A stretch of DNA of 64,000 nucleotides, taken from Candidatus Melainabacteria bacterium 17Bon1m (GTDB taxonomy: Bacteria > Cyanobacteriota > Vampirovibrionia > Obscuribacterales > Obscuribacteraceae). The DNA is taken from contig JAVLKG010000015.1 in NCBI GenBank assembly GCA_032128875.1, forward strand, positions 28,346 through 92,345, in the 5' to 3' direction. Under the pieces are notes generated by a model. That model saw nothing but the letters and a program-made list of their open reading frames with translations. It was not told where the DNA came from and searched no databases. Within the stretch, counting starts at the first letter, position 1, and each line of letters opens with the position of its first letter. Of this stretch, positions 1-55,719 are shown piece after piece. Both the position numbers and the translations under genes were made by a program.

Positions 1-152
1 TCCCCTGCTAAGATCCTGGTGGTCAGGGCAGGTCAGGAAAAATCAACGACGCCCAGGACACTCCCACTCAGGCGATCAGGTTTCCCAAATCACACTTGCT
101 TTCTCTCCGAAAAGTCCCAAGTTTTCGGAGCGCCGATACCCAGAATCGACCG

Positions 153-235
153 CGGAGCAAGGCTTTTGGAACTTTTCAACAGAGCAGCACCTCAAAAGTC
201 CGCAATACCTTACGGAGCAAGGCTTTTGGAACTTT
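153..235. repeat. 23-bp direct repeat CGGAGCAAGGCTTTTGGAACTTT, two copies, 60-bp period
   Basis: Identical copies at 153-175 and 213-235, followed by a perfect 13-bp inverted repeat (236-248 / 257-269). Confidence 0.85.
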
Positions 236-430
236 CGCACTACGAAAACTTACGGTTTTTCGTAGTGCGTGTTCGAACAATAATTCAAGGTGTCCCTGAG
301 AGCTTGTCCCCCCCGCCGCTCCACTACACCTTTTAGTATTAATCATGCCAACGAAATAAGATCGAGGTGAAGACCAACAATCAAGAATCGCCCGGCTCAC
401 CCGATTCTCCAATAACTAGCCAGCCTAAGA

Positions 431-460
431 AGAGCAGCAGACGTCCCTGTCTGTTGCTCT
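431..460. terminator. Hairpin just downstream of ftsH, possible terminator
   Basis: AGAGCAGCAGAC (431-442) pairs with GTCTGTTGCTCT (449-460), 14 bp past the ftsH stop. The U-tract is weak. Confidence 0.45.
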
Positions 461-474
461 GTAGGACCTTTAGC

Positions 475-2796
475 TTAGGCGTGGTTGTCCTGCTCCAAAG
501 CCAGGTAGCGACCGCGCAAATTGTTTATCCGTGCTTCTATGAAGCTGCGCGTAGCCACATCGAGTGGTTCGGCAGACCAGCCATAAGGGTCTTTCTTGAC
601 CTTCTCCATAAGCGCATCCAAGCGTCCGTTAGCCCATTCAGGATGAGCTTCGACTTCCTGCATCGCTGCCGCAAAAAGCTCAGCAAAACGGTCTTCTCGC
701 ATGATTTTCTCCTCGAGCAATTCCCAAAACATCGTCCAGATGCTTTCAGAACGAATGAAGAGATTCATGATCCACCAGGTTCTTGCATAGAGAACTTTGG
801 TTTTCAAATTGCACTCTGCGTCAATCAAGTCCTTTTGAGCAGAACCCATCTCTGTAGAGTTAGTCATGCCGCGCTGCCCCAACGAAATCGGTCCCAATTT
901 CTCAGAACCGTACCAGCGGCCGATTGCACGGTAAATGTTTCCTGCCACCACTTCGAAGTCGTTGTCTGGTCCCGAGTCTTTAGTGTTGAGAAAGACAAGT
1001 TGAGCAGCACTGCCTCCGAAACCGCAAACGGCATCGGCATCTACGTCATCCAAGGTTTTGGTAAAGGAATCTCGGCTTGGAGTTTTAAAAGTCAAACCAC
1101 CTGAGCGTCCCCTCGGTTCAACCGCGATGAAACGCACCATTTCATCGGTCCTTCCCAGAAAGCCTTCGTATGCAATGCCGATCGCATGACCTGCTTCGTG
1201 CACTACAGTATTGAAGATTTCCTCAAAGGTCAGGTTTACTTGCGTTTTTACACCCATCAAATGCCGCAACAATCCCTCAAAGAAATCCTCCTGGGTGACA
1301 GTTGATTTGATGATTTCCTTTATGTCGTCTTCGCTATAGCCTCCCTTTGCTCTCAGCTTGTCTGCTTCGACCTCAGCCAACTCGTCCGCGTAGAGTGCGG
1401 TTTCGTTGACTACGTTTTCCAAATCCGCGCCGGTTAGACCTCCTAAGACACTGGCTATGGCGTAGAAATTAACGTCTTTAGCTAAGGGCACTTCACGTTT
1501 TGCGCTATGCACTTTGAGAATGGCAACGCGTCCGTCCAAGTGTGGAGGGTCGACTTTGATCTTCCAGGTAAAGCGACCTGGACGAAGAAGTGCTTTGTCC
1601 AGGATATCGACCCTGTTCGTGGCACCAAATATCCATAAACCGAAATTCTGATTGCCGGTGTTTAATCCCTGCAATTCGACCAGAATCTGGTTCAATGTTT
1701 GATCCGCTTCCGGATGAGCGACAGGTCCATTCGACCGAGCCCGTCCAACCGCATCCAACTCGTCAATAAAAATTATGCAAGGCCGTTTGTCACGGGCATC
1801 GGCAAACATCTCTCGTACACGGTTTGCACCCAAACCCACGAACATTTCAACGAAGTCAGATCCGGAAATAACGAAAACCGGCACATTGCACTCTTTGGCC
1901 AGAGCTGTAATAAGCAGTGTCTTACCAGTGCCCGGAGGGCCTTCGAGCAAAACGCATTGAGGAAGCTTTCCTCCAAAACGAGACTTTTTGCTCAGCGACT
2001 GCAGCCGAGTCATCAACTCAGCAGCGGTTACGGACAACGCTCCTTTCTCGTTTGCCTCCGCACGTTTTGCCTCTTCTTCAGTACGAATTTTTTTGACGAC
2101 TTCAGCTTGCTCAACTATTTTAAGCTTGAGCTTTTTCATCTGACCGATTGCCTCAGGAATGCCTGCCACATCCGAAAATCCGTTACCTTTGATGTCTTCC
2201 GGATTGACCCACTGCCCAAAAACCTTGTCTGCAACACCTTGAGCATCGCCCAATCCACCTCGATTCGGGGCGAGCATGCCTTTACCGCGTCCAGCCAGAC
2301 CACGCCACTGCCCGGTGATCATCATGATTACAAAACCAATAATGATAAAGCCCAGTGCAAGTTTGGCTATGTACATAACGATCGCCAGCAATCCAGCGAA
2401 GAACGAACTTAGCGAACTGGGGTTGTGTCCCAGATCGTTTTCTTCGTCGTTGCCGTGATGCCCTGCTCCAGTATGCTCATGCTTAATAACGATCTCTAAC
2501 GGCTTGCCTCCGGTGGTGTCACCAGCGGTGACAACCGTACTACCTTCAGAAAGAGTGAGCGGCTTTGAAGTCGTTGGCTGCACAGCAGTGGTATCGAGCG
2601 CAGGCTTAGATGTTTCTGCATTTTTTGCAGACACTGGATTCATGTCAGGCCAGGCTGATTGCGACGCTGGAGTGACACCGTTATTGACCTGCTGCGGAGG
2701 TCCTTGACTGATTATGCCAGAAGGCATTGTCTGAATGTGGTAAAAAACCGCTCCAAACGCTACTGCGAAAAACGCAGGTATAAAGTAATTTTTCAT
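475..2796 (-). CDS. ftsH: ATP-dependent zinc metalloprotease, FtsH family (divergent paralog)
   Basis: Walker A GPPGTGKT, pore loop MFVG, Walker [19 protein letters not shown], zinc motif HEAGH, N-terminal hydrophobic segments, AGGAG RBS. Confidence 0.92.
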
Positions 2797-32398: not shown

Positions 32399-32721
32399 GG
32401 ACCAGCATATACTATGCCTTTTAGTATAAACGTTTTGCGACTCAACAGTAAAGTCATCAATTTGAAACACCTTGAAGTAAGACTTTAGACAGTGTTCTTC
32501 AGTTTTGGACTCAGTGGTAGCTAAAGCTTTCAACTGAGTCTACTCATCACCTGAATTAGCACTCAGAGCATTCCTTTTCAGCTTATTAATCTGGGATACA
32601 AACAGGTTCTTCACCTATAGGATGCGGGGTTTACGGGTATGAAATCGTAGGTTCCCCATTGAAAAGGGACCCGCTTTGCTTAAAAATCGCTAAACAGCAA
32701 AGCCAGGCACGGTGTTCAAGC

Positions 32722-35064
32722 ATGTACCAGTTAGAAGGCGACAACCAGCAAGCTCTCGCCCCAAACGAGGCTAAAGTTGCCGAAGCAAAAGAGAAAGCCG
32801 CCCAGGGCATGCTCGCTGAAGTTCAAGGCGGTCGCAAAACGACTGCTGTCGTCGATACTGCAGAAAGAGATGCGAATCTGCCTCTTTCCGCAATGATGTA
32901 TTTCGGCGCCATACCGGGAGCTGACAAACCTCCTGAGCCGGTAAAAATGCCGGAAGCGCCAAAGGGTTTTGCAAACAATTTAGCCAAGTCTTTCACTTAT
33001 TCGCTTATACAAGCACCTGTCGATGGTTTAAGTCAGCTCGTCGACAAAAGCTTCGGCTCATCGTGGCAGAAATCACTGCACTTCATGGACGCTCCGGCGC
33101 CAGCGAAATACGGCACATCCGATTGGGCAGCACAGCAAATCGGTGGCGCAGGCGGCATGATCGCGCCTTACTTGCTTTTGCACACCGGTGTTTCAAAAGT
33201 AGTCGGACGCGAAGTTCAAACAGCCAACTCCTTAAGCAGAGCCAATATCGGCAGGTTCGCAGCGCAAGAGTCAGGCATAGCAGCCGTCTCCGGTACGATT
33301 TACGGCGGTGTTTTCACACCGGTAAATTCAGCGTCGCAAGACTTCTGGGGCGACCGCTTCAGAAATGCGGCAACAAGCGGTTTAACATTCGCCACCCTGA
33401 CCGGCAGCTCAATCGGCTTGCAAGGCTTGGGACGCTCTATGAGCGCTCAAGGACGCACAGCCTTCGGCGGCATGCTCCAACACGAAGTCGCTGCCGGCGT
33501 CTTATCGGCAGTGCCGGCTGGTATCGTTCATGCGGACGGCGGTTCGCTTTTGGCAGGCAAGGGCCTGGCAACAGGAAAAGAACGCACAGAAGCAATCACC
33601 ACATTCGCGATGGTGGGCGGCGTCTTTGGCGGCGGTCATCGCTTATTGAACAATTACCGAGCTCGCAATCAAGCGACTGAAACGAACGTTCCTGCAGTTG
33701 ACGCACCAGTCGGAAGCGTGAGAGCCGCAAACGTTTTCATGCTGGGCGAGCGCATCACAAAGCCAAGTGAAGCAGCAAAAATGCCTGAGGTGAAAGGCCT
33801 CACGGAACAGCCAGCCACTGGTGAGACGGCCAACACCGGTACAAAAGCCGAAGCCAATCTTCCGCTTCTCGAAGTCGGCAAGCCAACTACACGCTACCAG
33901 GGCGTTGAACCAAACGCTATCGTCGAAAGAGTCATCGATACCAAGGGCGGCGGCAAAATCGTCATGTTCTCGAATGGCGAAAAGGTCGTCGACATCCCCG
34001 GCGAGCCCATTCGTACACAGAAAGCAGGTGGACACGTTGTCGTCGAAGCACGCGACGGCAAAGTCTCCGAGACTCGCATCAAGAGCCAGATCCCACTTGA
34101 AGAAAAGCCGCTGAACGTAGCCAGCGGCGCATACGAACAAATTGGAAAAGACCTTTCCAATTTCGCAGACCGCCCATTCACACTCGACGGCAGACAATAC
34201 GCTTCGGTGGAAGCTTTCTATCAAGGGCTGAAGTGGCCTGATGCTGCAAAACGCGCAGAAGTAGCAGTACTCACCGGCAAAGAAGCAAAATACTCCGCAA
34301 GAGAAGCACCGAAATCACAAACTTTCGAGTACGAAGGGCAAACATACAAGCTCGGCAGCCCGGAGCATCATCAATTGATGAAGCGCGCTATTCGCGAAAG
34401 CTTGGAACAAAATCCGGAAGTGATGAAAGATTTTGTGGAAACTTATCCACGACCGATCGAGCACAAGACAGGAAGAAGAGAGAATCCACGCTCTGCATTC
34501 CCGGGCTCTGCATTCACTCGCATCCTTTCGGAAATCAGAGCAGAATTGCGTGAGAAGTACGGCATAACCAACGATGCGCCGGCCCCAATCAAACCTGCAG
34601 TCGAGGAAAACATGAGCAAGTCGGTCTCTGAAACTCTTCGCGACGTGGTCAGCTCAGGCAACGCCCCTGAAAGACAAAATCTCGATGTTTACTCGAAAGC
34701 AATGGAAAATTCGCCGCATCGCGTCAAGGAATATGTGACAACAGGCAGTGATTCGGTTGTGATGAAACTGACCGATGGCAATATGCTCAAACTCACAAAA
34801 GAAGGCGAATTGCCCCCGGCAAGATCGTTCGACATGCCCGTTGTAGACAAAGGAACAGCACTTGCCGATCAAATTACCGTCAATTGGTTCATTCAACCGG
34901 AAGCGAAGTCACCAGTTGCACAAGCTGATTTGATGCCATTCTTGCAGAGAATTAGACAAGAAGGCTACAGAATGATTGATCCATCGTTGTCTAATTTAGG
35001 CTATTACAACGGCGAAGTAAAACTGCTCGATCCCTGGGCAGTTGTAGAAATTCCGAAGCAATAA
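32722..35064 (+). CDS. Multidomain effector-like protein: Gly/Ala-rich N-module + NADAR domain + C-terminal minimal protein-kinase-like domain
   Basis: LSNFADRPFTLDGRQYASVEAFYQGLK ... RILSEIR (NADAR, about 34141-34550); GSDSVV..LKLT..IDPSLSNLG..KLLDP (kinase-like, about 34700-35061). Start trimmed to ATG 32722. Confidence 0.8.
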   Translation: MYQLEGDNQQALAPNEAKVAEAKEKAAQGMLAEVQGGRKTTAVVDTAERDANLPLSAMMYFGAIPGADKPPEPVKMPEAPKGFANNLAKSFTYSLIQAPVDGLSQLVDKSFGSSWQKSLHFMDAPAPAKYGTSDWAAQQIGGAGGMIAPYLLLHTGVSKVVGREVQTANSLSRANIGRFAAQESGIAAVSGTIYGGVFTPVNSASQDFWGDRFRNAATSGLTFATLTGSSIGLQGLGRSMSAQGRTAFGGMLQHEVAAGVLSAVPAGIVHADGGSLLAGKGLATGKERTEAITTFAMVGGVFGGGHRLLNNYRARNQATETNVPAVDAPVGSVRAANVFMLGERITKPSEAAKMPEVKGLTEQPATGETANTGTKAEANLPLLEVGKPTTRYQGVEPNAIVERVIDTKGGGKIVMFSNGEKVVDIPGEPIRTQKAGGHVVVEARDGKVSETRIKSQIPLEEKPLNVASGAYEQIGKDLSNFADRPFTLDGRQYASVEAFYQGLKWPDAAKRAEVAVLTGKEAKYSAREAPKSQTFEYEGQTYKLGSPEHHQLMKRAIRESLEQNPEVMKDFVETYPRPIEHKTGRRENPRSAFPGSAFTRILSEIRAELREKYGITNDAPAPIKPAVEENMSKSVSETLRDVVSSGNAPERQNLDVYSKAMENSPHRVKEYVTTGSDSVVMKLTDGNMLKLTKEGELPPARSFDMPVVDKGTALADQITVNWFIQPEAKSPVAQADLMPFLQRIRQEGYRMIDPSLSNLGYYNGEVKLLDPWAVVEIPKQ

Positions 35065-35066
35065 AT

Positions 35067-38000
35067 TTAGTCACGCGGAACAGGAACAGGACCGGTTCCA
35101 TCAATAACCGGCGTCCAGTCATGATTGCGGAAGCGACGCGGCAATCCGAGACCTGTGGGAGACTCGATGAAAGCTTGAATCCAAGGGATATTGTTGTTAG
35201 GACCGCCATACGGCAATATAAGCGCGCTGCGCACATCTGAAAAGCGATACATCGAATTCGACATCATAGTGGTCAAAACGTCTTGCTCATGAGGCGTCAA
35301 ACTGTTGTAGAAGCGGTTGTTCGGGTGGTTAAGCGGCAGATAGGTGCTCGGACTGTCCACCACCTTCACGTTCAGGTGCGGCTTGCCGTCTGCTGGGAAA
35401 AGATTTGGATAATCGGCTTGATTTGTCCATGGATTTTTTCCACCAGGAACATCATGGCGACCCAAAGTTCCAACCGTGATGTCTTGAATGAGCGGCTTGC
35501 CATCCTCCATAAACCGGCTTTGCAAGACACTAAAGACGTTCTTTTGATTTTGATCAAGCAGTTTTGGTATTTGGTGACCACTCATCGCATAGTCATCGAT
35601 AAAAACGAGACGCTTAGTTTTCAGAGATTCATAAAGCGGTTTCAAGCTGTCCGGCACATTCTTCAGTGATTTATATCGAGCCAGAGCACGAATATCATTC
35701 ATCGAAACGAAATTTTCCGGAGTTAGCCCATTCACTTTTCCGTAAAGGTTATTGATCATGTAAGAGCTGCCGCCACCGGCTTCCAAGCCAGTGATAATGA
35801 GCATGTTCTTCGGATCGCCGCCGGGCACAGTTTCCAATATTTTCTTATGCAACTGTGCAGCCTGAGTCATCATGTCGGCATAGGTATTGACTTGCGTGCC
35901 TTCCATCAAAAGCCTTGCTGCAAGCCGTTGTTGCTCAGCGTTCATTTTTCCGAGAAAGTTCTCAATTTGCTGCGGTGTCGCTTGTGGTTCAAATATCTGC
36001 CTGTACAGAGCGTCTGTTTGATAGTCGTTGGCGCCGTGCAAACGCGCAGTATCTGCGGTCAAATCTCTGGCGACTCGACCACCTGTTACTTCGTTTGAGT
36101 TAACAACATGCGCATTGTCAAACTGTTCTCTCACTGTCTTGGCATACTGCTCGCGCAGCAGTTTGGCGGCTGCATCCGAATCGCTAATGCCTTCAGCGGC
36201 TTTTAGACGATTGATCTCGCCAAGCATCTGACCGATTTTGTCTTTGACGGCGCCGTTGTTGCCGGTCATCTGCGCGATTGACAGGTCGTAAATGTTTGGA
36301 CCTCTGGTAAATCCATCCATATCTGCAACAAGCAAATTCTTCACACTGGAAAGGATTTGACGTTGCTCTGGTGTGGCGTTTGCAATATTGTCGAAGAACA
36401 TCACGTTGTTGAGATTGTATTCTTCCCTCAACGAATTGATGCTGTCCTGCTGCTTCTGAATCAACTCGCGCGTGGTTAATTTCTTGCCGGGCAGAACCGC
36501 ATCGAGGTCCCCAGCAGCTTCCTTGGTAAATTTAGCGATTGCATCCTCGGCTGCTTTGATTTTTACGGCTGCTTCCTTGATTCTCAAAAGCTCGGCGCCG
36601 GTCAAAATGCGGACGTCTACATCAAGTCCGCTGTTCGCTCTGAACAAATGAGCCAAACCATTGCCATCACTTGCACCATCCAGAGTGAAGACAGTTGCTG
36701 TGGGAGGGCCACTTTCTTCAGTGAAGCCGCGCGAACGATTGCGCCAACTCCAACCATCAATCTTCTCCGCCTGCTCACGCAAGGCTTCCATGCGCTGATT
36801 GATAGCCTTGTTGGACATGTTCGGTCCAGACTGCTCCATCAGTTCACGCACAATCTTTTGCTCGTCAGCGGTGAGCTTACGGGTGACGCCGTCGATAGTG
36901 TAATCGCCGTTGAATAGGTCGTTGAAACTCTCTTTGGTGATTGGGCGATTGCCAAACTTCGCGCTTATCTGCTCGGCAAACTCTTTGAGTTCATCCGGTC
37001 GCATCAAACCGCTAGGGGCATCTGTAGTGGGTCGAAGCTGCTCGCCTTCTCCCTCACGGCGAGTCGGTGGTGCCTCTGCGTCTTCTTTGGGTTTTACCTT
37101 CTCATCAGGTGTTTCAGTGCGACGCACGACAGACGGATTGGCGTCGACAACCGGCTCATTAGCTACGCGCACAGGTTCTACACCATCGCGTCCAGGAACG
37201 ACAGGTTGCTCAACTACAGGTTCATCCATACGTGCACGAACGAATGTTCCGTCTTCATGAGGGACTACTCTTTGCGCAGGCAAGTTAGCATCAGGTGTGC
37301 CGCGCACAGCAACCTTAGCTCTTGCTCCCAAGTCCTCTAGGGTAGACGCGGCACTTCTCACATACGGACTGGCTGCCGTCCAACCTTTTCCTGCCACGTG
37401 CATGCCAGGGGCCAGCACCCATGTACCCACGCCGCCGCCCAAGCCACCAAATGCGGTAGAAGTAGCAGCCATCTGCATAAATTCCTTGAAGTCGCGAGCC
37501 TCTGCGCCAGCCCGCATAGTTCCGGACAAACCGCCGCCCGCCATACCGGCAAGTACATTATCCGGGGTGCTCTTAATCAACTGCTTGAGAAATGTGCGAC
37601 TTTGCTCTTCCATAGATTCGGCAATGGACTTCTTGAGCATTTGCGCAACGGCCTGCTCTTGTCCTTCCTTAGAAATTTGTTTGGCAAGAATACCAATTGC
37701 TTCATCTGTAATCTTGCCACCCTGCGCAAGTCCTTCTTTGACGAGGGTCGCGGCACCTCTTTTGAGAGCGGCTTCACCACCTTCTTTAAGCAAATGCCGT
37801 CCACCAAGAAACAGTACTTTGTCTGCTGCACTGGTGGCAACGCCGGCTCCCAGGAAAGTTGTAAAACCATCGGCGAAACCGGTCGCCCCATCAAGGGCCA
37901 CCTGACTGCTTCCCCAATCGTAGTCACCGCCCATGATGGCGCCTTTGGCTCCAACTTTAAAAACAGCCGCCGCAGCGCCAGTGTAAGCCAACAACGACAA

Positions 38001-41000
38001 ACTGACGCCACCCGTAAAGAAAGCGCCACCAACAGCTCCAGCCGCAATGGCTGTATCGACGACCGCATCCGCCAATGCTTCTTTAGACGACGCGTGCATG
38101 TCGACCATTTTGTAGACATTGTCGACGTACTCCCGCATTTTTGCCGGGTCTTCAACCATCTTAGCGGCTAGCTGGTTGACTTCATTGTCCAATTGATAAC
38201 CAGTGCCATCCCAGGCACGATCTACAAACCCACTGCCAAAGCCGGATCTTGTCGTAGCTGCGTCATTAAGTGCATAGAGGAATTCAGAACGAGCATCTCT
38301 GCCATTAACCTGACGAAGCGCTTGACGTTGGTCTTTACCGCCCAATTCGGAAACCAAATCAGCCGAAAGATCGGAGCCATATTTGCGGGCGTATTCGTCT
38401 CTTACCTTCTGAATTCTTTGCTGAATGACCTGGTCGATTTCAGCTTCCGTCTTACCTTCTGACTTCAACTGAGTACGATCATTAAGTGCAGCCAGCGTCT
38501 CTCTTATCTCTGCTTCACTCGTCCCGAGCCCTAGTTGGTATGAGCGCAGTTTGTCTTCAGGACGCATCTCGCCCTGTTCCATGGAAGCAAGAGCGACTTT
38601 GCGCTCATCTTCGCTAAGGAAGCCCATGACTCGCTCCTGGAAGCGTTTGTCCGTGAGAATTCTTTGTCTTTCGGCAGCGCTGGCACGCTGAATATCTTGA
38701 TACGCGCCCTGTTCATCGTCGTTGAACACACCGTTATTGAGATCCATCTGCAACTCTACGGAAAGCTTGCCGGTTTCAATCAGCGGCTTGGCATACTTTT
38801 CATAGTCGGAGCTGCCCATGGCACGGCGAGCGGCGTCTTTAAAATTCTCGGAGAAAGCCTTATCTTCAGGCGTTTGCGGATTGGTGATGCGGTCGCGCAT
38901 CTTCGGATCTTTGTCGAACGCGCCCTGTATATCTCTTATGACTTGCGCTTCGTCAGAATCGAAATAAGATGCTTGCAGATTGAGTTTGTCGAGAATTCCC
39001 ATCTGCGGTTTTTCGCCGCGCTGGACTTGTTCTAGCAATCCGAAGGCGACTTTCTGTTCGCTAGGATCAAGTGATTGCTTGAGTTTTGCGTCCAGATCGT
39101 CTTTGAACTTTTTGTCTGCGTCGCTTGCACCCGGCTCGCTGGCGCGTTTGTACTGAGCACGCTCGTTATCTGTCATGTTTTCGAGCGTTTTATAGATTGC
39201 AGCTTCGTCGTTGTTGTACCAACGTTTATTGTCTTCGATAGCGTCAAGAACCGGTCGACGCTCTTGTTTGCTGGCATCGTAAGAGGTCGCGTTCTTTTTG
39301 TCGGTGATCACCTTCATTGTGCGATCGAATTCTTCTTGGGAAAGATAGGTCTTCAATACCTGTTCGATCTTGCCGATTTGCGCTGGATCGTTCTTTAAAC
39401 GATCCCAGTCTTCTTGAGACATGTTCTCCACTGTGGAGATCACATCCTGCATACTCGAGTCATAGATATTGCCACGATGGTTGGCGAGCTGAGTGACGAG
39501 CGATCCGCCTTTTTGCGTGATCATGTCTTCCCATTTCGCGAGTTCGTTTATTTGCGAATCACCGGAGAACCATTTACCGGCGGCGGCTTTCAACTGTTCG
39601 TGTGTTTTGGTGTAATAGTCGAGAGCCTTCTGTTTGTCCGATTCTGAAACAGGTGTTTCCAGCGTTTGATTGTTGGCGATGCGCTTGCCTAAAGCGTATC
39701 TGTCGCGCTCTTCCTTACTCATGCTGGCGAGAGAATGTTCGATGGCTTCTTCGTTGTCGCCTAACCAACTTCTGTTGTCTGTTACTTGAGTGGCAACAGA
39801 GAGCTTGCCGTACTCGGCATAGTCTTGAACATGCCGCAATTCGGTGTCAGTAAGATTGCCGCCGGTCAGGAAGTTGAGAACACCGCCTTCAAATTTCTTT
39901 TTGAGTGTGTCTTTACCTTCGCCGTTTGTAAAGTAGTCTCTGACTTCTTTCGGCGCACGACGCATTGATTCCTGGAACATCTCAGCATTGCCGGCATTGA
40001 CGGCGTTGAGCGCCAATTGTTTGGTTTCTTCCGGCGTGCGGTTATCGTGCCCTTTGATATAAACCTTGGCCGAGTCTTTGGTTGCAGCAGAAAGATTCGG
40101 ATCGTTTTGAATTGCGTCGTTCAGTCCATGTCCATAGCGACGACGATACTCAGCGTCTGTCTGCGCGATTTCCGCAGCACTCATTGTCTCAAGAGTATTG
40201 CGAACAATCTTCTCAAGCTCGGAATTAGAACGCCCGAATGTCTCACCACGTTCTACCAAAGCTTGCCTGATTGTGCCTGCATTGTCAGCTCCATCAGGGC
40301 GATTGAGCAACGACATTGCCTTCTCAAGGTCGGAGCCTTTCATTTCATCGGCAAATTCTTTCTCCAAATTCCAATTGGCGCCGTACTTTGAAGCATGCTT
40401 CTTGTCCCAGATGTCCCTTATCATCTGTCTTTCGGCAGCAGTCTTGTTTTCCAACGTGGCATAAACAGTATCTTTATCAGTGCCAGCGCCCCACATGAAT
40501 CCTTCGTTCATTGCGGTTTCGAGAGCATCGGCAGCGGCTTCCATTGCTTTGTAATTGACGTCCTGGCGAGAACCATCCATCTTGCGCCACTGCTTGTTGC
40601 CCGCTGTGTCTTCCTGATAGTAGGTTCCGTCTTTCTCGACTTTGACGGTCCCTTGCCATTTGGAGCCGTCTTTGGTGTTCGTCCAATTCTTTCCGTCTTT
40701 TGTTTCCCAAGAAGCATCGCCTTCGGTCATTCTATTGACGTTGCCATCGGCACCATAAGCAAAGGTGCGCTTCACGCCTTTGGAATCGAGAGTTTCAACA
40801 ACTTGGCCGGCTTTATTCTCGACTCGATAGACACCGGACAGATCGCTGCGCCTGGTGTTGCCGTCTAACTGTTTGGTGACGACGGTATTGTTTTCAATGT
40901 AATTGTAGTTACCGTCCGGCGTTACCCAAGCAGCGCCTTTAGACTTGTCGCCTTTATTCGACTCCCAATTCTCGCCATCTTTGCTAGTCCAGACTTTTCC

Positions 41001-42863
41001 GTCTGCTTCTTTGATTTCAGACAGTTTGCCATTGGTGCCATACTTAAATTCACGCACCTGATTGTCGGCTGATTGTGTGCGTACGACGCGACCTTGTGGG
41101 TCAAAACTTACTTGGCTGCCGTCCTTGTTTTTGACTTCGAAGCCTTTGACTTTACCGTTATCGCCATACTCAAAACGAGTACTGGAGCCGTCTGCGTTGT
41201 CGGCTCTCTGGATGGTAGAGTTTTTGTCGAACGTCAGATTGCGTCCATCTGTGGTTCCAATCCTGCGATTACCTGTAGCGAGATCGTTTTCTTGATACGT
41301 TCCATCAGGTCGCACCAAAACGTTCATCTTGCGAGTTTGGTTGCTGCCTTCCTTCGTCCAGTTAGTACCGTCTGTAGTGCTCCACTTCGCGCCGGTGCTC
41401 TCAGTTACTTTTGAAATTTTGCCGTCTTGACCGTAGTCAAACTGGCGCCAGGTGCCGTTGGATGCTTCAACGCGCGAGATCCGGTTGTCTTTGTCGACTG
41501 AGATAGTCGACCCGTCCGGCTTGAAGACGCGCTTGCTGCCGTCAGCCGAAACTTCGCGATAGAGACCTTCTTCATTCGCCTCGAGCCGCCCTTTCCAGCT
41601 CTCTTTGGTCTTTTCATTGGTCCAATTCTGCCCGTCTTTGGAGGTCCAAGTGCCGGTAGAGTCGGTCATTTTGCTCATGCGACCTTGATCGTCGTACTCG
41701 AATTTTCTTGCCTTGCCTCGGGCATCAACAATTTGAGTGACTTGATCCAGTGCATTCTTGGTGACTTGCGAGCCGTCACGATTGGTGCGCTCAAGCCGGG
41801 TCTTGTCGCCTTCTTTGACTTCGTTCCAGCCGTCGCTGCGTTTTGCAACTTCCTTGCCGTCTGGGTATTTCTCGCGCACCGTACCGTCAGCATCAACCGA
41901 AATTTCAAGTTTTGCAGAATTCCTTGTGCCTTCTTGTTGCCAAGTTTTGCCGTCTTGTGTGCGCCAAACACTACCGTCCGGTTCTTGAACACCATTAAGC
42001 TTTTTGTTGGCGTCATAGGTGAAACGCCTTTCTGCGCCCGCCTTGTCTTTAACCGCGACGACGTTGCCGTCCTTGTCTCGCGAAACAGTCGAGCCGTCCA
42101 TTTTGAAAGTGGTCGTCTCGCCGCGAGCGTTCTTGACTGTCTGTGCGCCGTCTTGCGCCACCGATATTTCGCCCGAGCGATTTTGCCGCGTTTTCTCATT
42201 CGTCCAATTCTTACCGTCGCTGCTGCGCCAGGTAGAGCCATCCGGCTCGACAATTGAAGCCAGCCTGCCGTCGCTTTCATAGCCGTATCCGCGCTTGGCA
42301 CCGGAGGCATCGATAGACGCGGTAACACGATGCTTCTCATCAAACAACAACTGCGTGCCATCGTTGTTCATGCGCTTCGTTTCGTTGCCGTTAGCATCAA
42401 GCATGCTGACGCTGCGGTCAGGATTGCGCTTCATCTGCCTGCCGTCAGGCATAACCAGCGTATAAGTGCCGTCTTGTTCGAACTTCACGTCTTTGACGGG
42501 GATTTTCTCGCCAGTTTGTTTCAAAATAAGAGACTTTCCGTCCGCCGAGCGATTCCACTCGGTGCCGTCGGTTTCAGTAATGCGCACGACATTCCCGTTG
42601 GCGTCTCTTCCCGCGTTTACCGTGTAACCACTTTCGCGTTTGAAAGCCTCGGTCTGCTGAATCGCATTGGGATCCGCAAGTTGCCCAAGCAACGCTTCCT
42701 GACTCGGAAGTGATGCAATTTCCTCACGTTTTGCAGCGGCGGTTCTGGTAAGTTGCTCGAGCCCCTCAACTGCCTCATTGGCGGCGTGATCCTCTTCCAC
42801 CTCTTCCGGCGGATCCTCAATGCGAGACTCTTTCTTAGGTTGAGCTTCTAAGGGCGTAGACAC
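35067..42863 (-). CDS. Giant 2598-aa protein: YD/RHS-like beta repeats, annexin-like repeats, Gly-rich hydrophobic segment, C-terminal PRTase-like domain
   Basis: F.YD..G.l..v.E.DG..W.S.DG..W repeats (about 42620-40570); GTD/DE..I...L....ER..Y annexin-like units (about 40545-38320); AIAAGAVGGAFFTGG..; RLVFIDDYAMSGHQ and PYGGPNNN near the C-terminus. Confidence 0.85.
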   Translation of the reverse strand: MSTPLEAQPKKESRIEDPPEEVEEDHAANEAVEGLEQLTRTAAAKREEIASLPSQEALLGQLADPNAIQQTEAFKRESGYTVNAGRDANGNVVRITETDGTEWNRSADGKSLILKQTGEKIPVKDVKFEQDGTYTLVMPDGRQMKRNPDRSVSMLDANGNETKRMNNDGTQLLFDEKHRVTASIDASGAKRGYGYESDGRLASIVEPDGSTWRSSDGKNWTNEKTRQNRSGEISVAQDGAQTVKNARGETTTFKMDGSTVSRDKDGNVVAVKDKAGAERRFTYDANKKLNGVQEPDGSVWRTQDGKTWQQEGTRNSAKLEISVDADGTVREKYPDGKEVAKRSDGWNEVKEGDKTRLERTNRDGSQVTKNALDQVTQIVDARGKARKFEYDDQGRMSKMTDSTGTWTSKDGQNWTNEKTKESWKGRLEANEEGLYREVSADGSKRVFKPDGSTISVDKDNRISRVEASNGTWRQFDYGQDGKISKVTESTGAKWSTTDGTNWTKEGSNQTRKMNVLVRPDGTYQENDLATGNRRIGTTDGRNLTFDKNSTIQRADNADGSSTRFEYGDNGKVKGFEVKNKDGSQVSFDPQGRVVRTQSADNQVREFKYGTNGKLSEIKEADGKVWTSKDGENWESNKGDKSKGAAWVTPDGNYNYIENNTVVTKQLDGNTRRSDLSGVYRVENKAGQVVETLDSKGVKRTFAYGADGNVNRMTEGDASWETKDGKNWTNTKDGSKWQGTVKVEKDGTYYQEDTAGNKQWRKMDGSRQDVNYKAMEAAADALETAMNEGFMWGAGTDKDTVYATLENKTAAERQMIRDIWDKKHASKYGANWNLEKEFADEMKGSDLEKAMSLLNRPDGADNAGTIRQALVERGETFGRSNSELEKIVRNTLETMSAAEIAQTDAEYRRRYGHGLNDAIQNDPNLSAATKDSAKVYIKGHDNRTPEETKQLALNAVNAGNAEMFQESMRRAPKEVRDYFTNGEGKDTLKKKFEGGVLNFLTGGNLTDTELRHVQDYAEYGKLSVATQVTDNRSWLGDNEEAIEHSLASMSKEERDRYALGKRIANNQTLETPVSESDKQKALDYYTKTHEQLKAAAGKWFSGDSQINELAKWEDMITQKGGSLVTQLANHRGNIYDSSMQDVISTVENMSQEDWDRLKNDPAQIGKIEQVLKTYLSQEEFDRTMKVITDKKNATSYDASKQERRPVLDAIEDNKRWYNNDEAAIYKTLENMTDNERAQYKRASEPGASDADKKFKDDLDAKLKQSLDPSEQKVAFGLLEQVQRGEKPQMGILDKLNLQASYFDSDEAQVIRDIQGAFDKDPKMRDRITNPQTPEDKAFSENFKDAARRAMGSSDYEKYAKPLIETGKLSVELQMDLNNGVFNDDEQGAYQDIQRASAAERQRILTDKRFQERVMGFLSEDERKVALASMEQGEMRPEDKLRSYQLGLGTSEAEIRETLAALNDRTQLKSEGKTEAEIDQVIQQRIQKVRDEYARKYGSDLSADLVSELGGKDQRQALRQVNGRDARSEFLYALNDAATTRSGFGSGFVDRAWDGTGYQLDNEVNQLAAKMVEDPAKMREYVDNVYKMVDMHASSKEALADAVVDTAIAAGAVGGAFFTGGVSLSLLAYTGAAAAVFKVGAKGAIMGGDYDWGSSQVALDGATGFADGFTTFLGAGVATSAADKVLFLGGRHLLKEGGEAALKRGAATLVKEGLAQGGKITDEAIGILAKQISKEGQEQAVAQMLKKSIAESMEEQSRTFLKQLIKSTPDNVLAGMAGGGLSGTMRAGAEARDFKEFMQMAATSTAFGGLGGGVGTWVLAPGMHVAGKGWTAASPYVRSAASTLEDLGARAKVAVRGTPDANLPAQRVVPHEDGTFVRARMDEPVVEQPVVPGRDGVEPVRVANEPVVDANPSVVRRTETPDEKVKPKEDAEAPPTRREGEGEQLRPTTDAPSGLMRPDELKEFAEQISAKFGNRPITKESFNDLFNGDYTIDGVTRKLTADEQKIVRELMEQSGPNMSNKAINQRMEALREQAEKIDGWSWRNRSRGFTEESGPPTATVFTLDGASDGNGLAHLFRANSGLDVDVRILTGAELLRIKEAAVKIKAAEDAIAKFTKEAAGDLDAVLPGKKLTTRELIQKQQDSINSLREEYNLNNVMFFDNIANATPEQRQILSSVKNLLVADMDGFTRGPNIYDLSIAQMTGNNGAVKDKIGQMLGEINRLKAAEGISDSDAAAKLLREQYAKTVREQFDNAHVVNSNEVTGGRVARDLTADTARLHGANDYQTDALYRQIFEPQATPQQIENFLGKMNAEQQRLAARLLMEGTQVNTYADMMTQAAQLHKKILETVPGGDPKNMLIITGLEAGGGSSYMINNLYGKVNGLTPENFVSMNDIRALARYKSLKNVPDSLKPLYESLKTKRLVFIDDYAMSGHQIPKLLDQNQKNVFSVLQSRFMEDGKPLIQDITVGTLGRHDVPGGKNPWTNQADYPNLFPADGKPHLNVKVVDSPSTYLPLNHPNNRFYNSLTPHEQDVLTTMMSNSMYRFSDVRSALILPYGGPNNNIPWIQAFIESPTGLGLPRRFRNHDWTPVIDGTGPVPVPRD

Positions 42864-43118: not shown

Positions 43119-44573
43119 ATGATTATGTCCCAAAGGCCTCTACCTCGCTATTTTGTCAGCCGACAAGACGATAAGTCGTTTGCGGATTGCATAAGCACGC
43201 TAGATCCTTGCCATGCCATAGACAGCTTCTTCATTGGCGGCCGGCACCTTGTAGAACGCGAGTGGGTTGTAACCATCGACTCAGCCGGTTACCTCAAAGC
43301 TGCAGACGGCGACAAGCTAGGCAGTTTGCCTGCCGAAGTACAGCAAGACCTAGCTTTCAACGAGGTTATTGGTAGCGCAGCCAACCGCACGCTCGACAGT
43401 TCCGCGGTATATCTTTTCTACCTCGAGGCGCTGGAACAGCCGCCGGAAACACCCGGCTTGAACGACCCTGTTTATCTCTACGGCACCCTCTACGGACCCT
43501 TCCCGTCATCGTCCAACGACAGCCTGCGCGGCATTAACGGTCAGTTGACCGTCAACCGTATGGACTTGCTTGCCGGACTAGTCGATTCTGCAAAATTCGC
43601 CTTTAATTACCAATCGGTCGGCAACGAAACTCTGAGATGTTTCAACTTGCTTTTGCCAGGAGACCGAGAAGAGGAAATCGCGCAAGGAAAAGGGCTTGTT
43701 ATGGCGTACCCGCTCATGCCCGCCGAAGTCGTGATGGGAGAGCCCTGGAACGAAATTGTCGTTTGCGGTCTTATTTTCGACATCCTGTCAGCGCTCAAGG
43801 AAGATCTGGAAAAAGAGAAGGTCAACCATCCGTTGCGCAGCATGACCCTACCAGTGCCCAACCGTGCCTGGCTGGAGCAGCAATTGGAATCAAACGGCTA
43901 CCAGATCAAAGGAAACATCGCCACACGCTTGCCAGGCTCTAATACAGGCATTCCAAAGATGCTCTCCTACGCTCTCGGACATTTGATCAAAGACAAAACC
44001 ACCTTGCCGCCGCAAGGCACCATCAACGATTTCATCGAAATTGCAGAAGCGACAATCAAACATTTACCAGGCTTTCCTTCTACACGATTGAAAGCCCTGC
44101 GTTCACGAGTGCGCGATGTTTCGCCGGAAGCCCGTGCTCAGGGTTCGCGCACAAAAACCGCGCCGTTGCAACCGGCTCGAATACCGGCGGGACAGGTGTT
44201 TCCCGCACAAATGGGCAACGCTCCGGCAACCAAGAAAGTTGACTGGATGCAAGATTTCATCACCAAACATCGCCCAGCCGGAGGCGGCGAAACCCGCCTG
44301 ACCACGATGTCGGGACTTGCAAATTCTCGTCCTTCCCAACCTGCAAAAGCGCCAGCGAAAGCAGAAACGAAATTAAATGCTAAACCTGACTGGATGAGCG
44401 ATTTTGATGGTCAGCCAGCGGGCAAAGAGAATATCAATTCCGAAGGACCTACAGAGAAGAAAGAGAAGAAAAACGAAAACTCTCAGCAGCGCAAAGAGCA
44501 GAAGCAGAACCAGAACCAGAACCAAAAGCCAGAACAAAAACAAGAACAAGACTGGATGAAAGATTTCCAGTAG
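43119..44573 (+). CDS. Hypothetical protein with disordered tail carrying three DWMxDF motifs
   Basis: 484-aa ORF; DWMQDF, DWMSDF and DWMKDF, the last at the C-terminus; Q/N/K-rich linker. Confidence 0.8.
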   Translation: MIMSQRPLPRYFVSRQDDKSFADCISTLDPCHAIDSFFIGGRHLVEREWVVTIDSAGYLKAADGDKLGSLPAEVQQDLAFNEVIGSAANRTLDSSAVYLFYLEALEQPPETPGLNDPVYLYGTLYGPFPSSSNDSLRGINGQLTVNRMDLLAGLVDSAKFAFNYQSVGNETLRCFNLLLPGDREEEIAQGKGLVMAYPLMPAEVVMGEPWNEIVVCGLIFDILSALKEDLEKEKVNHPLRSMTLPVPNRAWLEQQLESNGYQIKGNIATRLPGSNTGIPKMLSYALGHLIKDKTTLPPQGTINDFIEIAEATIKHLPGFPSTRLKALRSRVRDVSPEARAQGSRTKTAPLQPARIPAGQVFPAQMGNAPATKKVDWMQDFITKHRPAGGGETRLTTMSGLANSRPSQPAKAPAKAETKLNAKPDWMSDFDGQPAGKENINSEGPTEKKEKKNENSQQRKEQKQNQNQNQKPEQKQEQDWMKDFQ

Positions 44574-53212: not shown

Positions 53213-53950
53213 CGAATTTTTCGGAGGGTGGGGAGGAAGGATTTGTTGCTTATTTACTAAGGTCGTTGACCGAATGGAAGCTCGGATGTCAACAACCACG
53301 CAAATCGTACTACTGAAAAGCCCTGAATGCAAGCACAATTAATGGTTTCCACGATTTCAAAACTTCGCGCATCCCTCACGTTCCGGTCACGCAGAAATGC
53401 CAGATGAGAGACTCGCGCAACCAAACATTAGAGACTCGCGCAATTGTGAGCAGCGCTTCATATTGCGCCAAACGCAATTTTTGACACCTCTTCACATTTG
53501 CTTCCATCCCCCTTTGAACGCAGAAGAAGGCATCTGGGTGAGGCTCAAGACACATTAGCAACAGCTAACACAGTTATCGCTAAGCCTTTTTTGGTGCTTT
53601 TTCCTGAGCGTGCTTCTTGATACGTAAGGGAATCGTTCTTTTTTTCAAGCAATCTCGGAGCAATCCAACACAACTAACAATTCAGCATCCATGAGCCGCC
53701 ACTCAAAGCAACTTCGGTTGTCGGATGTGATTCGTAAGTCGTGTTGAGCTTCGCGTGAGCCTTGCTCACCAGTAAGTTGCACAAAAAAACAACGGGTTTG
53801 TCTCGAATTAATTGGCACGGACATTGAAGTGAGTCTGGGCCTCCAACTGGAAAACAAGCGTTGTCGTTCTCGACTTGAGGATGGCTGCGTTTTTTTGCGC
53901 CTTTTGGCGTGCTCACTTCAAGTTCTCTAAATCCCCAAAGGAGGCCAAAT

Positions 53951-54571: not shown

Positions 54572-54703
54572 GCTGCAGCTGAGCGCTGTTCTCTAAGCCC
54601 GGTGAATTGTCATCGCCGAAAGGCTTTGCAATCTGTTGCGGCGGACGAGAAATTCTGTCGCGTTTGCGATAATCATTCAAACTCAATAGCCAAAGGAAAA
54701 TGT

Positions 54704-55680: not shown

Positions 55681-55719
55681 TTGCTGTAGGGCCTACGCCA
55701 TACGTAGGCCCTACAGCAA
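55681..55719. repeat. Perfect 17-bp inverted repeat, GTAG-type REP-like
   Basis: TTGCTGTAGGGCCTACG-ccata-CGTAGGCCCTACAGCAA between convergent genes. Confidence 0.8.

Follow-up and report, generated by a model that had tools for sequence, protein, structure and literature searches.

The question raised by this locus is whether a giant bacterial gene, described in a preliminary account as a fusion of annexin-like repeats with W-x-S-x-D-G-containing YD-like repeats, really encodes both, and whether its product could act as a membrane-docking module for effector delivery. The gene lies in a stretch of 64,000 nucleotides (hereafter the window) from Candidatus Melainabacteria bacterium 17Bon1m. The span to which the two features had been assigned (38320–42620) corresponds to aa 82–1514 of a single ORF on the complementary strand (35067..42863, stop codon included; P0001), which starts with GTG and encodes 2598 aa. 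A database protein (P0002) has the same length and is 99–100% identical to P0001 over its parts. RNA-labelled sequencing runs contained the gene on 15–23 kb contigs that span genes of both strands at flat depth; hence, these runs do not speak for transcription. Both types of repeat proved to be real, with matches whose E-values exclude chance as their origin.

Leader and YD/RHS repeats

The first 84 residues of the protein (42612..42863, complementary strand, as are all features of this gene) form an acidic, low-complexity leader without a signal peptide; none was recognized in the 67 family N-termini inspected. The sole candidate trafficking feature at the N-terminus is an uncharacterised motif, LPSQEALLGQL (aa 52–62, nt 42678–42710). 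This is a variant of an LP-x-hydrophobic-x-hydrophobic-x-D motif, the strict form of which is present at aa 47–89 in 17 of the 67 proteins of the family; the background frequency is 0.0096 per 200 aa.

The leader is followed by a region of about 690 aa (aa 85–774; 40542..42611) with six W-x-S-x-DG-x-x-W super-repeats. The motif W-x-[STRK]-x-D-G-x-x-W was located at aa 212, 300, 406, 494, 625 and 719, with a spacing of 88–131 aa. Pfam RHS_repeat (PF05593) matched with an E-value of 8.3e-31 on the whole protein and of 5e-37 on aa 1–774, and NCBIfam YD_repeat_2x (TIGR01643) with an E-value of 2.1e-19, so that the YD-like repeats noticed ahead of the annexin units were borne out by both databases and by the motif scan. 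Solved Rhs proteins also matched these repeats by sequence (E-values from 5.7e-12 to 5e-4), the effectors of type VI secretion systems (T6SS) being the closest.

Rhs toxins possess an RHS core with a PxxxxDPxGL autoproteolysis motif ahead of the toxin. A DP.G[LWM] motif was absent throughout the whole protein, and no RHS-core model was found among the NCBIfam matches at E ≤ 1. The YD region is separated from the C-terminal domain (the tip) by about 1200 aa comprising the annexin array, the hairpin module and the linker. Among 63 relatives, RHS matches were located ahead of the array in 29 and behind the hairpin module in 11, and were absent from 23. A closed Rhs cocoon enclosing the tip was set aside on account of the missing core motif, the short repeat region and the variable position of the repeats. 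The N-terminal YD repeats are probably a positionally variable accessory, i.e. a surface-binding or shielding β-structure rather than a closed cocoon. The protein shares with the T6SS Rhs effectors (8h8a, Tse15; 7q97, Tse5) homologous YD repeats, a variable C-terminal putative toxin and hydrophobic helices, which prePAAR Rhs effectors use for membrane passage. It differs from them in the lack of the RHS core and DPxGL, in the length of the repeat region, in the location of the repeats behind the hairpin module in the 11 relatives mentioned above, and in its 93%-complete genome, where PAAR, Hcp and sheath proteins were not found.

Annexin array and adjoining hairpin module

The annexin array (aa 775–1530; 38274..40541) consists of nine predicted five-helix units, R1 to R9. 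Pfam Annexin (PF00191) scored 34.9 bits when run on the whole protein; on aa 775–1530 it reached 41.5 bits, in three stretches. Both scores exceed the curated cut-off of 25. When the units were isolated, R1 reached 17.7 bits and R9 25.3 bits, and none of R3–R8 matched. The profile of the family alignment of this region (A2, 36 sequences) matched 78 distinct PDB sequences at E ≤ 0.1, with annexin VI as the best one (E 1.4e-36), and the best 60 of these 78 were all annexins or annexin fusions. A plain phmmer search of the PDB with the annexin region gave nothing at E ≤ 0.1.

The AlphaFold2 model of aa 775–1530 (pLDDT 90.1, pTM 0.73) was all-helical, with 49 helices arranged in about nine five-helix units. 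Foldseek placed annexins in the best 26 rows (best E 7.4e-6), annexin VI at the top. The VIA structural search gave Z values of 11.9–9.2 over 133–190 residues, and the 50 matches listed were all annexins, giardins or annexin fusions; the top match had a Z of 11.9 (rmsd 4.8, 140 residues aligned), where values below about 13 are not decisive for helical repeats. Unit-against-unit comparison by hhalign linked R1, R2, R4, R5, R6, R8 and R9 at 89–98.5% and R7 more weakly (80.5%), and found no link of R3 (aa 941–1019) to the other units (maximum 13%). The earlier estimate of about five more degenerate units between the two canonical ones was about right, since five of the seven intervening five-helix units are linked to the canonical ones at ≥89%, leaving one at 80.5% and one unlinked.

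It is highly improbable that the annexin resemblance is a superficial effect of helical low complexity and that this region is an unrelated helical spacer. Such a reading could draw on the individual R3–R8 units without a Pfam match, on the empty phmmer search and on the VIA scores, but it is at odds with the Pfam score above the curated cut-off, the family profile, the Foldseek ranking and the ties of internal units to R1 and R9; by these four lines it was refuted for at least seven of the nine units. The family profile and the predicted fold, in which the helical units take the annexin five-helix arrangement with annexins as the best structural matches, support that they are true annexin homologues.

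The two end units are canonical. R1 (aa 775–857; 40293..40541), recognized by Pfam, by profile A2 against solved annexins and by residue conservation, contains a GAGTD loop and an acidic cap in ADEMKG. The loop that had been reported is present, but at nt 40476–40490 instead of 40470–40484. R9 (aa 1433–1530; 38274..38567) contains GLGTSE (nt 38514–38531) and, with its acidic cap, VSELGG (nt 38337–38354), and has an insert of about 20 aa between helices B and C. In annexins the type II Ca2+ site is formed by a GxGT loop and an acidic residue located about 38 residues downstream. Both elements were found in R1 (GAGT, E840) and R9 (GLGT, E1506) and were absent from R2–R8; 44 residues separate the threonine from the acidic cap in R1, and 57 do so in R9, versus 38 in annexins. 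Conservation in A2 (n=36) was 24 for G794, 24 for T795, 25 for D796 and 22 for E840 in R1, and 32 for G1445, 34 for G1447, 23 for T1448 and 23 for E1506 in R9. At least these end units appear, from their residues, to retain both elements of an annexin Ca2+ site, loop and acidic cap.

Compared with eukaryotic annexins, and with the eight-repeat annexin A6 in particular (annexin VI, the best match by both sequence profile and Foldseek), the array has in common five-helix repeats about 70 aa long, the tandem arrangement and the loop with its downstream acidic residue in R1 and R9. It differs in having nine units instead of four or eight, in the loss of the GxGT loop from most of them, in the longer spacing to the cap, and in the fusion to a membrane hairpin and to enzyme domains. 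The overall arrangement is also different from the annexin disc, with global TM-scores of 0.17–0.38 and rmsd values of 12–25 Å (Foldseek). No four-repeat (or 2x4) disc core was found among the nine units; only R1, R2 and R9 superpose on the annexin core (model ranges 1..165 and 1..746 in VIA).

Directly after the array, in 61 of 63 relatives, comes a conserved hairpin module (aa 1531–1850; 37314..38273), formed by a long helical hairpin and then Gly-rich amphipathic helices. It includes an Ala/Gly-rich hydrophobic hairpin (aa 1596–1639), delimited by Kyte-Doolittle hydropathy and conservation, which is marginally hydrophobic (maximum 1.53 over 19 aa) and highly conserved across 35 sequences. 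Its presence had been correctly noticed, but its coordinates are 37947–38078 and not 38070–37930. The model of the module had a pLDDT of 68. Foldseek gave nothing at E ≤ 0.001 (the best match, the α-pore-forming toxin AhlB, had an E of 0.83 and a probability of 0.06), and VIA, against 48,161 chains, gave generic helical bundles only (best Z 8.2 over 68 residues); therefore, no fold was assigned to the module. Since the number of membrane segments is even, both ends of the protein would be cytoplasmic if the hairpin were inserted in the membrane of the producer.

Distribution of the family and exchange of C-terminal domains

Of 77 genomes sampled from the same family-rank group, 67 encode proteins with the annexin array and the hairpin module, with 1–11 copies per genome; none was found in the 200 other genomes that make up the rest of the phylum sample. 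The family is specific to this group (Obscuribacterales/Obscuribacteraceae, Melainabacteria). When P0001 was compared with its close relative P0005, identity was 72–100% in 34 of the 36 blocks of 50 aa up to aa 1800, with a dip to 60% at aa 951–1000; it was about 50% at aa 1801–1900 and 10–52% in the C-terminal part. P0004 likewise combines a conserved scaffold with a divergent C-terminal part. In these two relatives identity was 71–88% over the stretch that begins with the YD repeats and ends with the hairpin module, and 23–30% in the C-terminal part, with only 48% in the leader of P0004. The break in both is located at aa 1800–1950, in the Pro/Val/Glu-rich linker (aa 1851–1959; 36987..37313) at which C-terminal domains are exchanged. 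A constant scaffold whose C-terminal domain differs from one near relative to the next, by exchange, is the pattern of polymorphic toxins. As judged from the domain order, the array and the hairpin form the invariant core of the family, and the YD repeats and the C-terminal enzyme domains vary.

Other C-terminal types in relatives include protein phosphatases, a transglutaminase and a probable papain-like protease, and behind one type other than that of the window protein there is a conserved, overlapping ORF of about 180 aa. FHA domains are present in some relatives, and a Ser/Thr kinase was identified by BLAST as a neighbour in 12 of 48 neighbourhoods. The survey of the tips that accompany this scaffold, advised in the preliminary description, revealed exchangeable domains of several enzyme types with tip-specific neighbour genes: the overlapping ORF with the type just mentioned, and a NADAR gene with the tip found here.

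The tip in the window (aa 1960–2598; 35070..36986) has a core resembling PRTase-CE at aa 2152–2580. Pfam PRTase-CE (PF24390) scored 22.3–24.8 bits on the window protein (cut-off 27), and 22 of 30 aligned relatives matched it at E ≤ 0.01 (best 6.1e-12). The PADLOC model PRTase_III-A matched the domain with an E-value of 4.8e-5, and its ESM Atlas neighbours, taken as a lead only, carry PF24390. Nothing was found in the PDB with the C-terminal profile. A search of 1.84 billion representative proteins gave 61 matches, mostly C-terminal ends of proteins of 1000–7700 aa. PRPP-binding loops consist of a hydrophobic run, two acidic residues and small residues with S/T-G. A similar motif is located at aa 2419–2431 (nt 35571–35609), and D465 and G470 of the aligned C-terminal domain are nearly invariant in its alignment (A5). 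By these matches the domain is classed as a PRTase-CE-like phosphoribosyltransferase.

Downstream of the gene, in convergent orientation and not co-transcribed with it, the forward strand encodes a protein of 801 aa (32659..35064) with a hydrophobic Gly-rich N-terminal half and a NADAR domain of the gp30.3/AdfN type at aa 471–640 (nt 34069–34578). Of 43 loci examined, 7 have a big gene that the PRTase HMM matched; the same 7 contain a NADAR ORF and the other 36 have neither. Metagenome loci with a PRTase tip and downstream sequence contained NADAR in 4 of 4 cases, among them L055, where the scaffold is without annexin. NADAR therefore adjoins all PRTase-tipped relatives that have downstream sequence (7/7 plus 4/4, 11 loci). 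The genome encodes another PRTase-like domain, a weak match (C3, 60.8 bits), on a contig that lacks NADAR. Longer NADAR partners have hydrophobic Gly/Ala-rich N-termini. The complex prediction for the PRTase core (aa 190–639 of the C-terminal domain) and the NADAR domain, with a score of 0.00 against a mark of 0.32, speaks neither for nor against an interaction. The neighbouring NADAR protein is a candidate antidote or immunity protein for the PRTase tip.

A PRTase paired with NADAR is also found in DS-32 (DefensePredictor, bioRxiv 10.1101/2025.01.08.631726), an experimentally validated defence pair whose authors read it as toxin-antitoxin-like. The likeness concerns the pairing of domains. 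DS-32 consists of two free-standing E. coli genes, whereas in the present loci the PRTase forms the C-terminal end of proteins of 2400–3200 aa and NADAR often has a hydrophobic N-terminus. The accessory proteins of type III-A retrons have a catalytic core of the same Pfam family, here fused to a giant scaffold. The PRTase and NADAR pair, recently validated in phage defence, thus recurs in a different setting, with the PRTase as tip of a scaffold and its partner encoded next to it. This favours a role of NADAR in counteracting what the PRTase produces, and suggests that the toxic act is a phosphoribosyl-linked modification.

Possible roles of the annexin scaffold

Bacterial annexins upstream of C-terminal enzymatic toxin domains are described in Zhang et al. 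2012 (PMC3482391) and Kodavali et al. 2014 (PMC3894181), where annexin is proposed to help breach or engage the target membrane, and some proteins have predicted transmembrane segments beside the annexins. The same papers report fusions with one to few annexin domains, from Haliangium, Microscilla and Burkholderiales, linked to a PVC-type metallopeptidase, Ntox3 or Colicin D and assigned to PVC-type secretion. Annexin-toxin fusions and the idea of delivery are thus already in print, and the latter is not new. The present proteins likewise have annexins ahead of a C-terminal enzyme domain; they differ in the nine units of one predicted array, the invariant hairpin module, the YD repeats, the PRTase and phosphatase tips and the lineage. 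The terms 'RHS', 'YD repeat' and 'Cyanobacteria' each have 0 occurrences in PMC3894181. No paper combining annexin with Obscuribacterales or Vampirovibrionia was found; articles joining annexin and Melainabacteria concern, by their titles, gut microbiota or cell biology, and those retrieved for a predatory lifestyle of the lineage deal, by titles and abstract openings, with other matters.

The layout found here, in which annexin homologues adjoin a hairpin and carry exchangeable tips, is what one would expect if an effector scaffold had a module for engaging membranes. The explanation that we favour, at about an even chance, is a polymorphic toxin scaffold, limited to one family-rank group, whose annexin and hairpin core engages membranes. 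After exit from the producer cell, the nine-unit array would dock on anionic phospholipid, with Ca2+ bound, the adjacent hairpin would next insert into that membrane, and the domain behind the flexible Pro-rich linker would thereby be placed at or across it. The exchangeable tip, here the PRTase-CE-like phosphoribosyltransferase, would be toxic, and the neighbouring NADAR glycohydrolase-type protein would be its cognate partner, conferring immunity. The membrane-docking module for effector delivery postulated at the outset gained from the annexin homology, the near-constant hairpin and the exchangeable tips with their specific neighbours, but neither signal peptides nor secretion markers were found. 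The 93%-complete genome gave no match to Phage_sheath_1, PAAR, T6SS_HCP, VirB4 (CagE_TrbE_VirB) or FHIPEP, so that, as far as these profiles tell, markers of T3SS, T4SS, T6SS and contractile injection were not found there, nor was a link of the PAAR/VgrG type; among 48 neighbourhoods there was no recurrent neighbour resembling a secretion component. The ShlB search, in which the control had no match anywhere, carries no information. Apart from the missing signal peptide and secretion markers, several observations count against the toxin-scaffold reading: the marginal hydrophobicity of the hairpin (1.53), the cytoplasmic location of both protein ends if it sits in the producer's membrane, a nine-unit arrangement unlike the annexin disc, FHA domains and Ser/Thr kinase neighbours typical of cytoplasmic signalling, the known occurrence of PRTase-CE and of PRTase with NADAR in intracellular defence systems, the convergent NADAR gene in the window, and C3 without NADAR on its contig.

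Since the search for an export route came up empty, a cytoplasmic sensor of membrane damage must be taken seriously as a rival, although we hold it to be less probable than a delivered toxin and, on balance, unlikely. The protein would then serve in conflict or defence, anchored in the inner membrane, as a damage sensor fused to a toxin-antitoxin pair of the DS-32 kind: the hairpin would anchor it in the cell's own membrane, the array on the anionic inner leaflet would answer Ca2+ influx or membrane damage due to phage, a toxin or a predator, and this would switch on the PRTase, normally checked by NADAR. The validated intracellular PRTase and NADAR pair, the FHA domains and the kinase neighbours agree with this, and the hydrophobic N-termini of the longer NADAR partners would place both partners at the same membrane. 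Defence systems, too, often swap their effectors. PRTase-CE is, according to PMC13712802, the accessory protein of type III-A retrons, in line with the PADLOC match. However, proteins with YD/RHS repeats are elsewhere exported or exposed on the surface, and the solved structures nearest in sequence are T6SS Rhs effectors; up to 11 copies per genome with differing tips, together with small ORFs downstream that are specific to the tip, resemble a toxin-immunity arsenal; phosphatase, probable papain-like protease and transglutaminase tips are common in delivered effectors; and no defence-island context was seen around the gene. More doubtful still is the fuller version, in which the array, anchored by the hairpin to the membrane of its own cell, on the cytoplasmic side, would be a bacterial counterpart of the eukaryotic annexin membrane-damage response, sensing Ca2+ entry or lipid exposure on envelope breach and releasing a suicide or arrest effector, the PRTase checked by NADAR.

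A sub-case of the toxin scaffold, and a rather remote one, is a giant bacteriocin of the colicin or pyocin kind released by lysis or in vesicles, with the LP motif of the disordered leader as import signal, the YD repeats as receptor-binding part and the annexins and hairpin as translocation domain. The excess of the strict motif over background and its variant at aa 52 of the window protein would fit, but its likeness to a TonB/TolB box is an impression only, and 50 of 67 proteins lack the strict form. The immunity-like gene is convergent and directly downstream (9 nt), as in pore-forming colicins, and its product looks membrane-associated. An architecture of annexin, Pyocin_S and Colicin D from a Burkholderiales genome is reported in PMC3894181. 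No lysis gene was identified.

Annexins of bacteria have so far passed for rare curiosities, and remarkably few strains possess them according to PMC3894181; here one family-rank lineage has them in 67 of 77 sampled genomes, in up to 11 copies, always as a nine-unit array joined to a membrane hairpin, the constant chassis for exchangeable enzymes. For the damage sensor the tips would be alternative outputs of one annexin-based device. The array also provides a confident predicted structural model of a non-canonical annexin assembly. The family offers a concrete, clonable system in which to ask whether bacterial annexins serve membrane docking for toxin delivery or damage sensing, and these findings suggest that bacteria use annexins for docking toxins on membranes.

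A single ORF with YD repeats and a nine-unit annexin-type array

The region 38320..42620, preliminarily described as annexin-like repeats fused to W-x-S-x-D-G-containing YD-like repeats, lies wholly within one ORF (35067..42863, minus strand), which starts with GTG and encodes 2598 amino acids (residue i starts at nucleotide 42863-3(i-1)). A near-identical protein of 2598 aa (P0002; 99-100% over its parts) was found in the protein collection. The protein begins with a leader (aa 1-84) that is acidic and of low complexity and lacks a signal peptide. Next come YD repeats (aa 85-774), an all-helical region (the array, aa 775-1530), a conserved module in which a long helical hairpin precedes amphipathic, Gly-rich helices (aa 1531-1850), a linker rich in Pro, Val and Glu (aa 1851-1959) and a C-terminal domain (the tip, aa 1960-2598). 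The hydrophobic hairpin proposed in that description was located at aa 1596-1639 (nt 37947-38078), and its YD-like repeats were recognized by Pfam (RHS_repeat, E 8.3e-31), by NCBIfam (YD_repeat_2x, E 2.1e-19) and by six copies of the W-x-S-x-D-G-x-x-W motif at aa 212-719, spaced 88-131 aa apart. The DPxGL-type RHS core motif is absent from the protein and the NCBIfam search did not retrieve an RHS core model. Among proteins of solved structure, T6SS Rhs effectors come closest to the YD part in sequence (E 5.7e-12 to 5e-4).

The annexin assignment was confirmed with the Pfam Annexin HMM, which scored 34.9 bits with the complete protein and 41.5 bits, in three stretches, with aa 775-1530 alone (curated cut-off, 25). 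The two strings on which it had been based were identified as GAGTD (nt 40476-40490) and GLGTSE (38514-38531) with VSELGG (38337-38354). Each sequence element of the preliminary description was confirmed. The AlphaFold2 model of the array, obtained with 36 aligned sequences (mean pLDDT 90.1, pTM 0.73), contained 49 helices, which we divided among nine five-helix units (R1-R9). On their own, R1, R2 and R9 matched Pfam Annexin (17.7, 17.9 and 25.3 bits, respectively); no match was obtained for R3-R8. Profile-profile comparison linked R1 to R9 (97.9%), R6 (95.3%) and R2 (92.3%), R2 to R9 (96.2%), and the inner units to one another (R4-R6 98.0%, R5-R6 98.5%, R5-R8 97.2%, R6-R8 97.0%). The best link of R7 was 80.5%, and R3 was linked to no other unit (maximum 13%). 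By these links, at least seven units are annexin repeats by descent.

When the array family profile was compared with the PDB, 78 distinct sequences were retrieved at E <= 0.1, with annexin VI as the top match (E 1.4e-36), and all 60 among the matches listed were annexins or annexin fusions; a plain phmmer search of the array region retrieved no PDB sequence at this threshold. With the array model as query, the first 26 rows in Foldseek were annexins (best E 7.4e-6), with TM-scores of only 0.17-0.38, and in VIA-align annexins scored Z 11.9-9.2 with 133-190 residues aligned, the alignments covering R1-R2, often plus R9. Thus, the helical units are predicted to adopt an annexin-like repeat fold, as had been anticipated, but the overall assembly would not be that of the four-repeat disc. 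The GxGT loop and the downstream acidic cap are kept in R1 and R9, separated by 44 and 57 residues, respectively, versus 38, and these residues are kept in 22-34 of the 36 aligned relatives.

The invariant core, its distribution and its surroundings

The hairpin-module match directly follows the annexin match in 61 of 63 relatives, whereas RHS-type matches are placed ahead of the array in 29, after the hairpin module in 11 and are missing in 23. By this order, the array plus hairpin is the invariant core and the YD repeats are accessory elements. The genome that carries this gene (7.55 Mb, 35 contigs, 93% complete) has five more array-bearing ORFs (1423-1804 aa), one of them 34% identical and also provided with the hairpin module. 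Within the same family-rank group, 67 of 77 further genomes gave matches to the array (1-11 per genome); no match was obtained in three genomes from the order's other family or in a phylum-wide sample of 200 other genomes. The 42 array loci from species-representative genomes were all in MAGs, titled Obscuribacterales, Obscuribacteraceae, Melainabacteria or Cyanobacteriota, with five exceptions (Drouetiella or Oculatellaceae).

Beside the big gene, three plus-strand genes (43119-44573, 44647-45576 and 45723-46679) encode a protein of 484 aa that belongs to no Pfam family, and two ~310-aa, weakly VWA-like paralogues with acidic or His-rich tails. They remain linked to the big gene in loci L010, L011 and L016, downstream and on the same strand in L016 and upstream and divergent elsewhere. 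A 464-aa protein (51944-53338, minus strand) has a Glyco_hydro_75 (fungal chitosanase) domain (E 1.8e-11), unusual in a bacterium, which may have a bearing on what the organism feeds on or attacks. The G+C content at 54001-58000 is 0.59-0.63, versus ~0.50 in the rest of the window. Among the coded runs X1-X20, those of seven studies, labelled as plankton, aquifer, drinking-water or oil-facility metagenomes or with coded organism names, contained nearly all of the segment 30000-48000 (share of words 0.78-1.00), and an eighth study only a small share of it. The three RNA-labelled runs assembled to 15-23 kb contigs, as did the DNA run.

Exchangeable tips and their partner genes

Block-wise identity shows that the C-terminal domain is swapped at the Pro-rich linker. 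Relative P0003 is 54-100% identical to the big protein in every 50-aa block (at least 62% in 50 of 52), its C-terminal part being 84% identical. In P0005, 34 of 36 blocks up to aa 1800 are 72-100% identical; identity dips to 60% at aa 951-1000, is ~50% in aa 1801-1900 and falls to 10-52% in the C-terminal part, and P0004 follows a similar pattern. The precomputed Pfam domains of relatives include tyrosine or dual-specificity phosphatases, PRTase-CE, Pribosyltran and transglutaminase core, together with GGDEF, NADAR-type and FHA domains.

A search of 1.84 billion representative proteins gave 61 relatives of the big protein's own tip, most of them located C-terminally in proteins of 1000-7700 aa. 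PF24390 (PRTase-CE) matched 22 of 30 aligned tip relatives (best 6.1e-12); the big protein itself scored 22-25 bits, below the cut-off of 27, and gave a PRTase_III-A match in PADLOC (E 4.8e-5). A PRPP-loop-like motif is present at aa 2419-2431.

A convergent 801-aa ORF (32659..35064, plus strand) ends 2 nt from the big gene's stop codon and contains a Phage_30_3 domain (E 1.1e-15); T4 gp30.3 is named as the NADAR ADP-ribosylglycohydrolase AdfN in bioRxiv 10.1101/2024.07.11.602962. Custom HMMs of the PRTase core and the NADAR domain were run over the 42 loci and the window. The PRTase HMM matched the big gene in seven loci (the window, L010, L011, L012, L013, L016 and L042, the latter with a distant scaffold, array 35% identical), and NADAR ORFs were found in exactly these seven and in none of the 36 others. 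Scanning metagenomes for the PRTase core yielded five loci, four of them with downstream sequence, and all four had a NADAR ORF within 2.5 kb; in one, L055, the big protein has no annexin or RHS match. Near-duplicates and orthologues are included in these counts, which amount to ~3 independent cases. On its contig (C3), a weak second PRTase-like domain of the own genome (60.8 bits) is not accompanied by a NADAR, which argues against universality of the pairing. On C3, convergent giant ORFs encode 3382 aa (70754-80899, plus strand) and 2322 aa (80928-87893, minus strand). The 2322-aa product has an N-terminus rich in Pro and Glu and, at its C-terminus, a hydrophobic segment; it also contains a weak PRTase-like domain and a stretch resembling a phosphatase. 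This genome appears rich in giant proteins without signal peptides. A PRTase paired with a NADAR protein is already known from DS-32 (bioRxiv 10.1101/2025.01.08.631726), an E. coli system validated as anti-phage and interpreted as toxin-antitoxin-like, whereas here the PRTase is the tip of a giant scaffold.

Other tip types also have their own close neighbours. In L020 (15577-16143), L038 (15603-16145), L039, L044 and L050, the last 21-39 nt of the big gene are shared with a conserved same-strand ORF of ~180 aa that matches no Pfam family. Judged by sequence alone, the tip end in L020, L038 and L050 looks like a papain-type protease; together with the ORF, this tip would be the scaffold's second candidate toxin-immunity pair. 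With another tip type, an LRR protein adjoins the big gene (L014 and L015). Recurrent neighbours in the 48 neighbourhoods were a Ser/Thr kinase with TPR repeats, the NADAR-associated family, histidine kinases and small ORFs. One such kinase (L009:161-1810, plus strand; Pkinase E 1e-52) is divergent from and adjoins the array paralogue L004 on contig C1; BLAST found homologues in 12 of 48 neighbourhoods and clustering placed 15 loci in its cluster. The recurrent kinase and the relatives' FHA domains hint at phospho-threonine control; the recurrence could be due to chance alone if kinases are numerous in these genomes.

Proposed delivery to membranes or sensing within the cell

The constant order of parts (annexin array, hairpin, flexible linker, exchangeable enzyme), the tip-specific partner genes and the many copies per genome fit a polymorphic toxin scaffold with a membrane-engaging core, a reading to which we give an even chance. 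In this reading, docking of the array on anionic lipid would be followed by insertion of the hairpin into the membrane, which would place the tip at or across the bilayer. Export is the weak point of delivery: no signal peptide was found in any family member inspected, the own genome (93% complete) yielded no member of the sheath, PAAR, Hcp, VirB4 or FHIPEP families, and no secretion-like gene recurs in the 48 neighbourhoods. This gap, together with the FHA domains of relatives and the intracellular pedigree of PRTase-CE and PRTase plus NADAR, keeps alive a less likely reading as a cytoplasmic sensor, in which the array would respond to an influx of Ca2+ or to damage to the membrane of its own cell by triggering the tip.

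A bacteriocin-like sub-case rests on the motif [LIVMF]-P-x-[LIVM]-x-[LIVMF]-x-[DEG], which is located between aa 47 and 89 in 17 of the 67 family proteins (0.6 expected from a background of 0.0096 per 200 aa), with a variant at aa 52 of the big protein (aa 52-62, nt 42678-42710). The motif lies ~50-60 aa in, after a charged disordered leader, at the N-termini of relatives P0016-P0063 and of paralogue L006; the RHS-type subfamily has the variant LP(S/D)xxxLLxQL at the same place, and the NADAR neighbour a similar LP motif ~52 aa past its first ATG. It may be an export, import or processing signal.

Bacterial annexin domains upstream of toxin domains, sometimes adjoining membrane anchors, and the idea that annexins help to breach target membranes are already found in passages of PMC3482391 and PMC3894181. 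Our literature search, which left ~1.7 million PubMed Central articles outside, found no paper on annexin with Obscuribacterales or Vampirovibrionia, and with Melainabacteria only five papers, unrelated by title. New with respect to the published annexin-toxin fusions are the nine-unit array with a confident model, its constant fusion to the hairpin module, its combination with YD repeats, the pairing of a PRTase tip with a NADAR partner on an annexin scaffold and the expansion of this architecture across the Obscuribacteraceae lineage.
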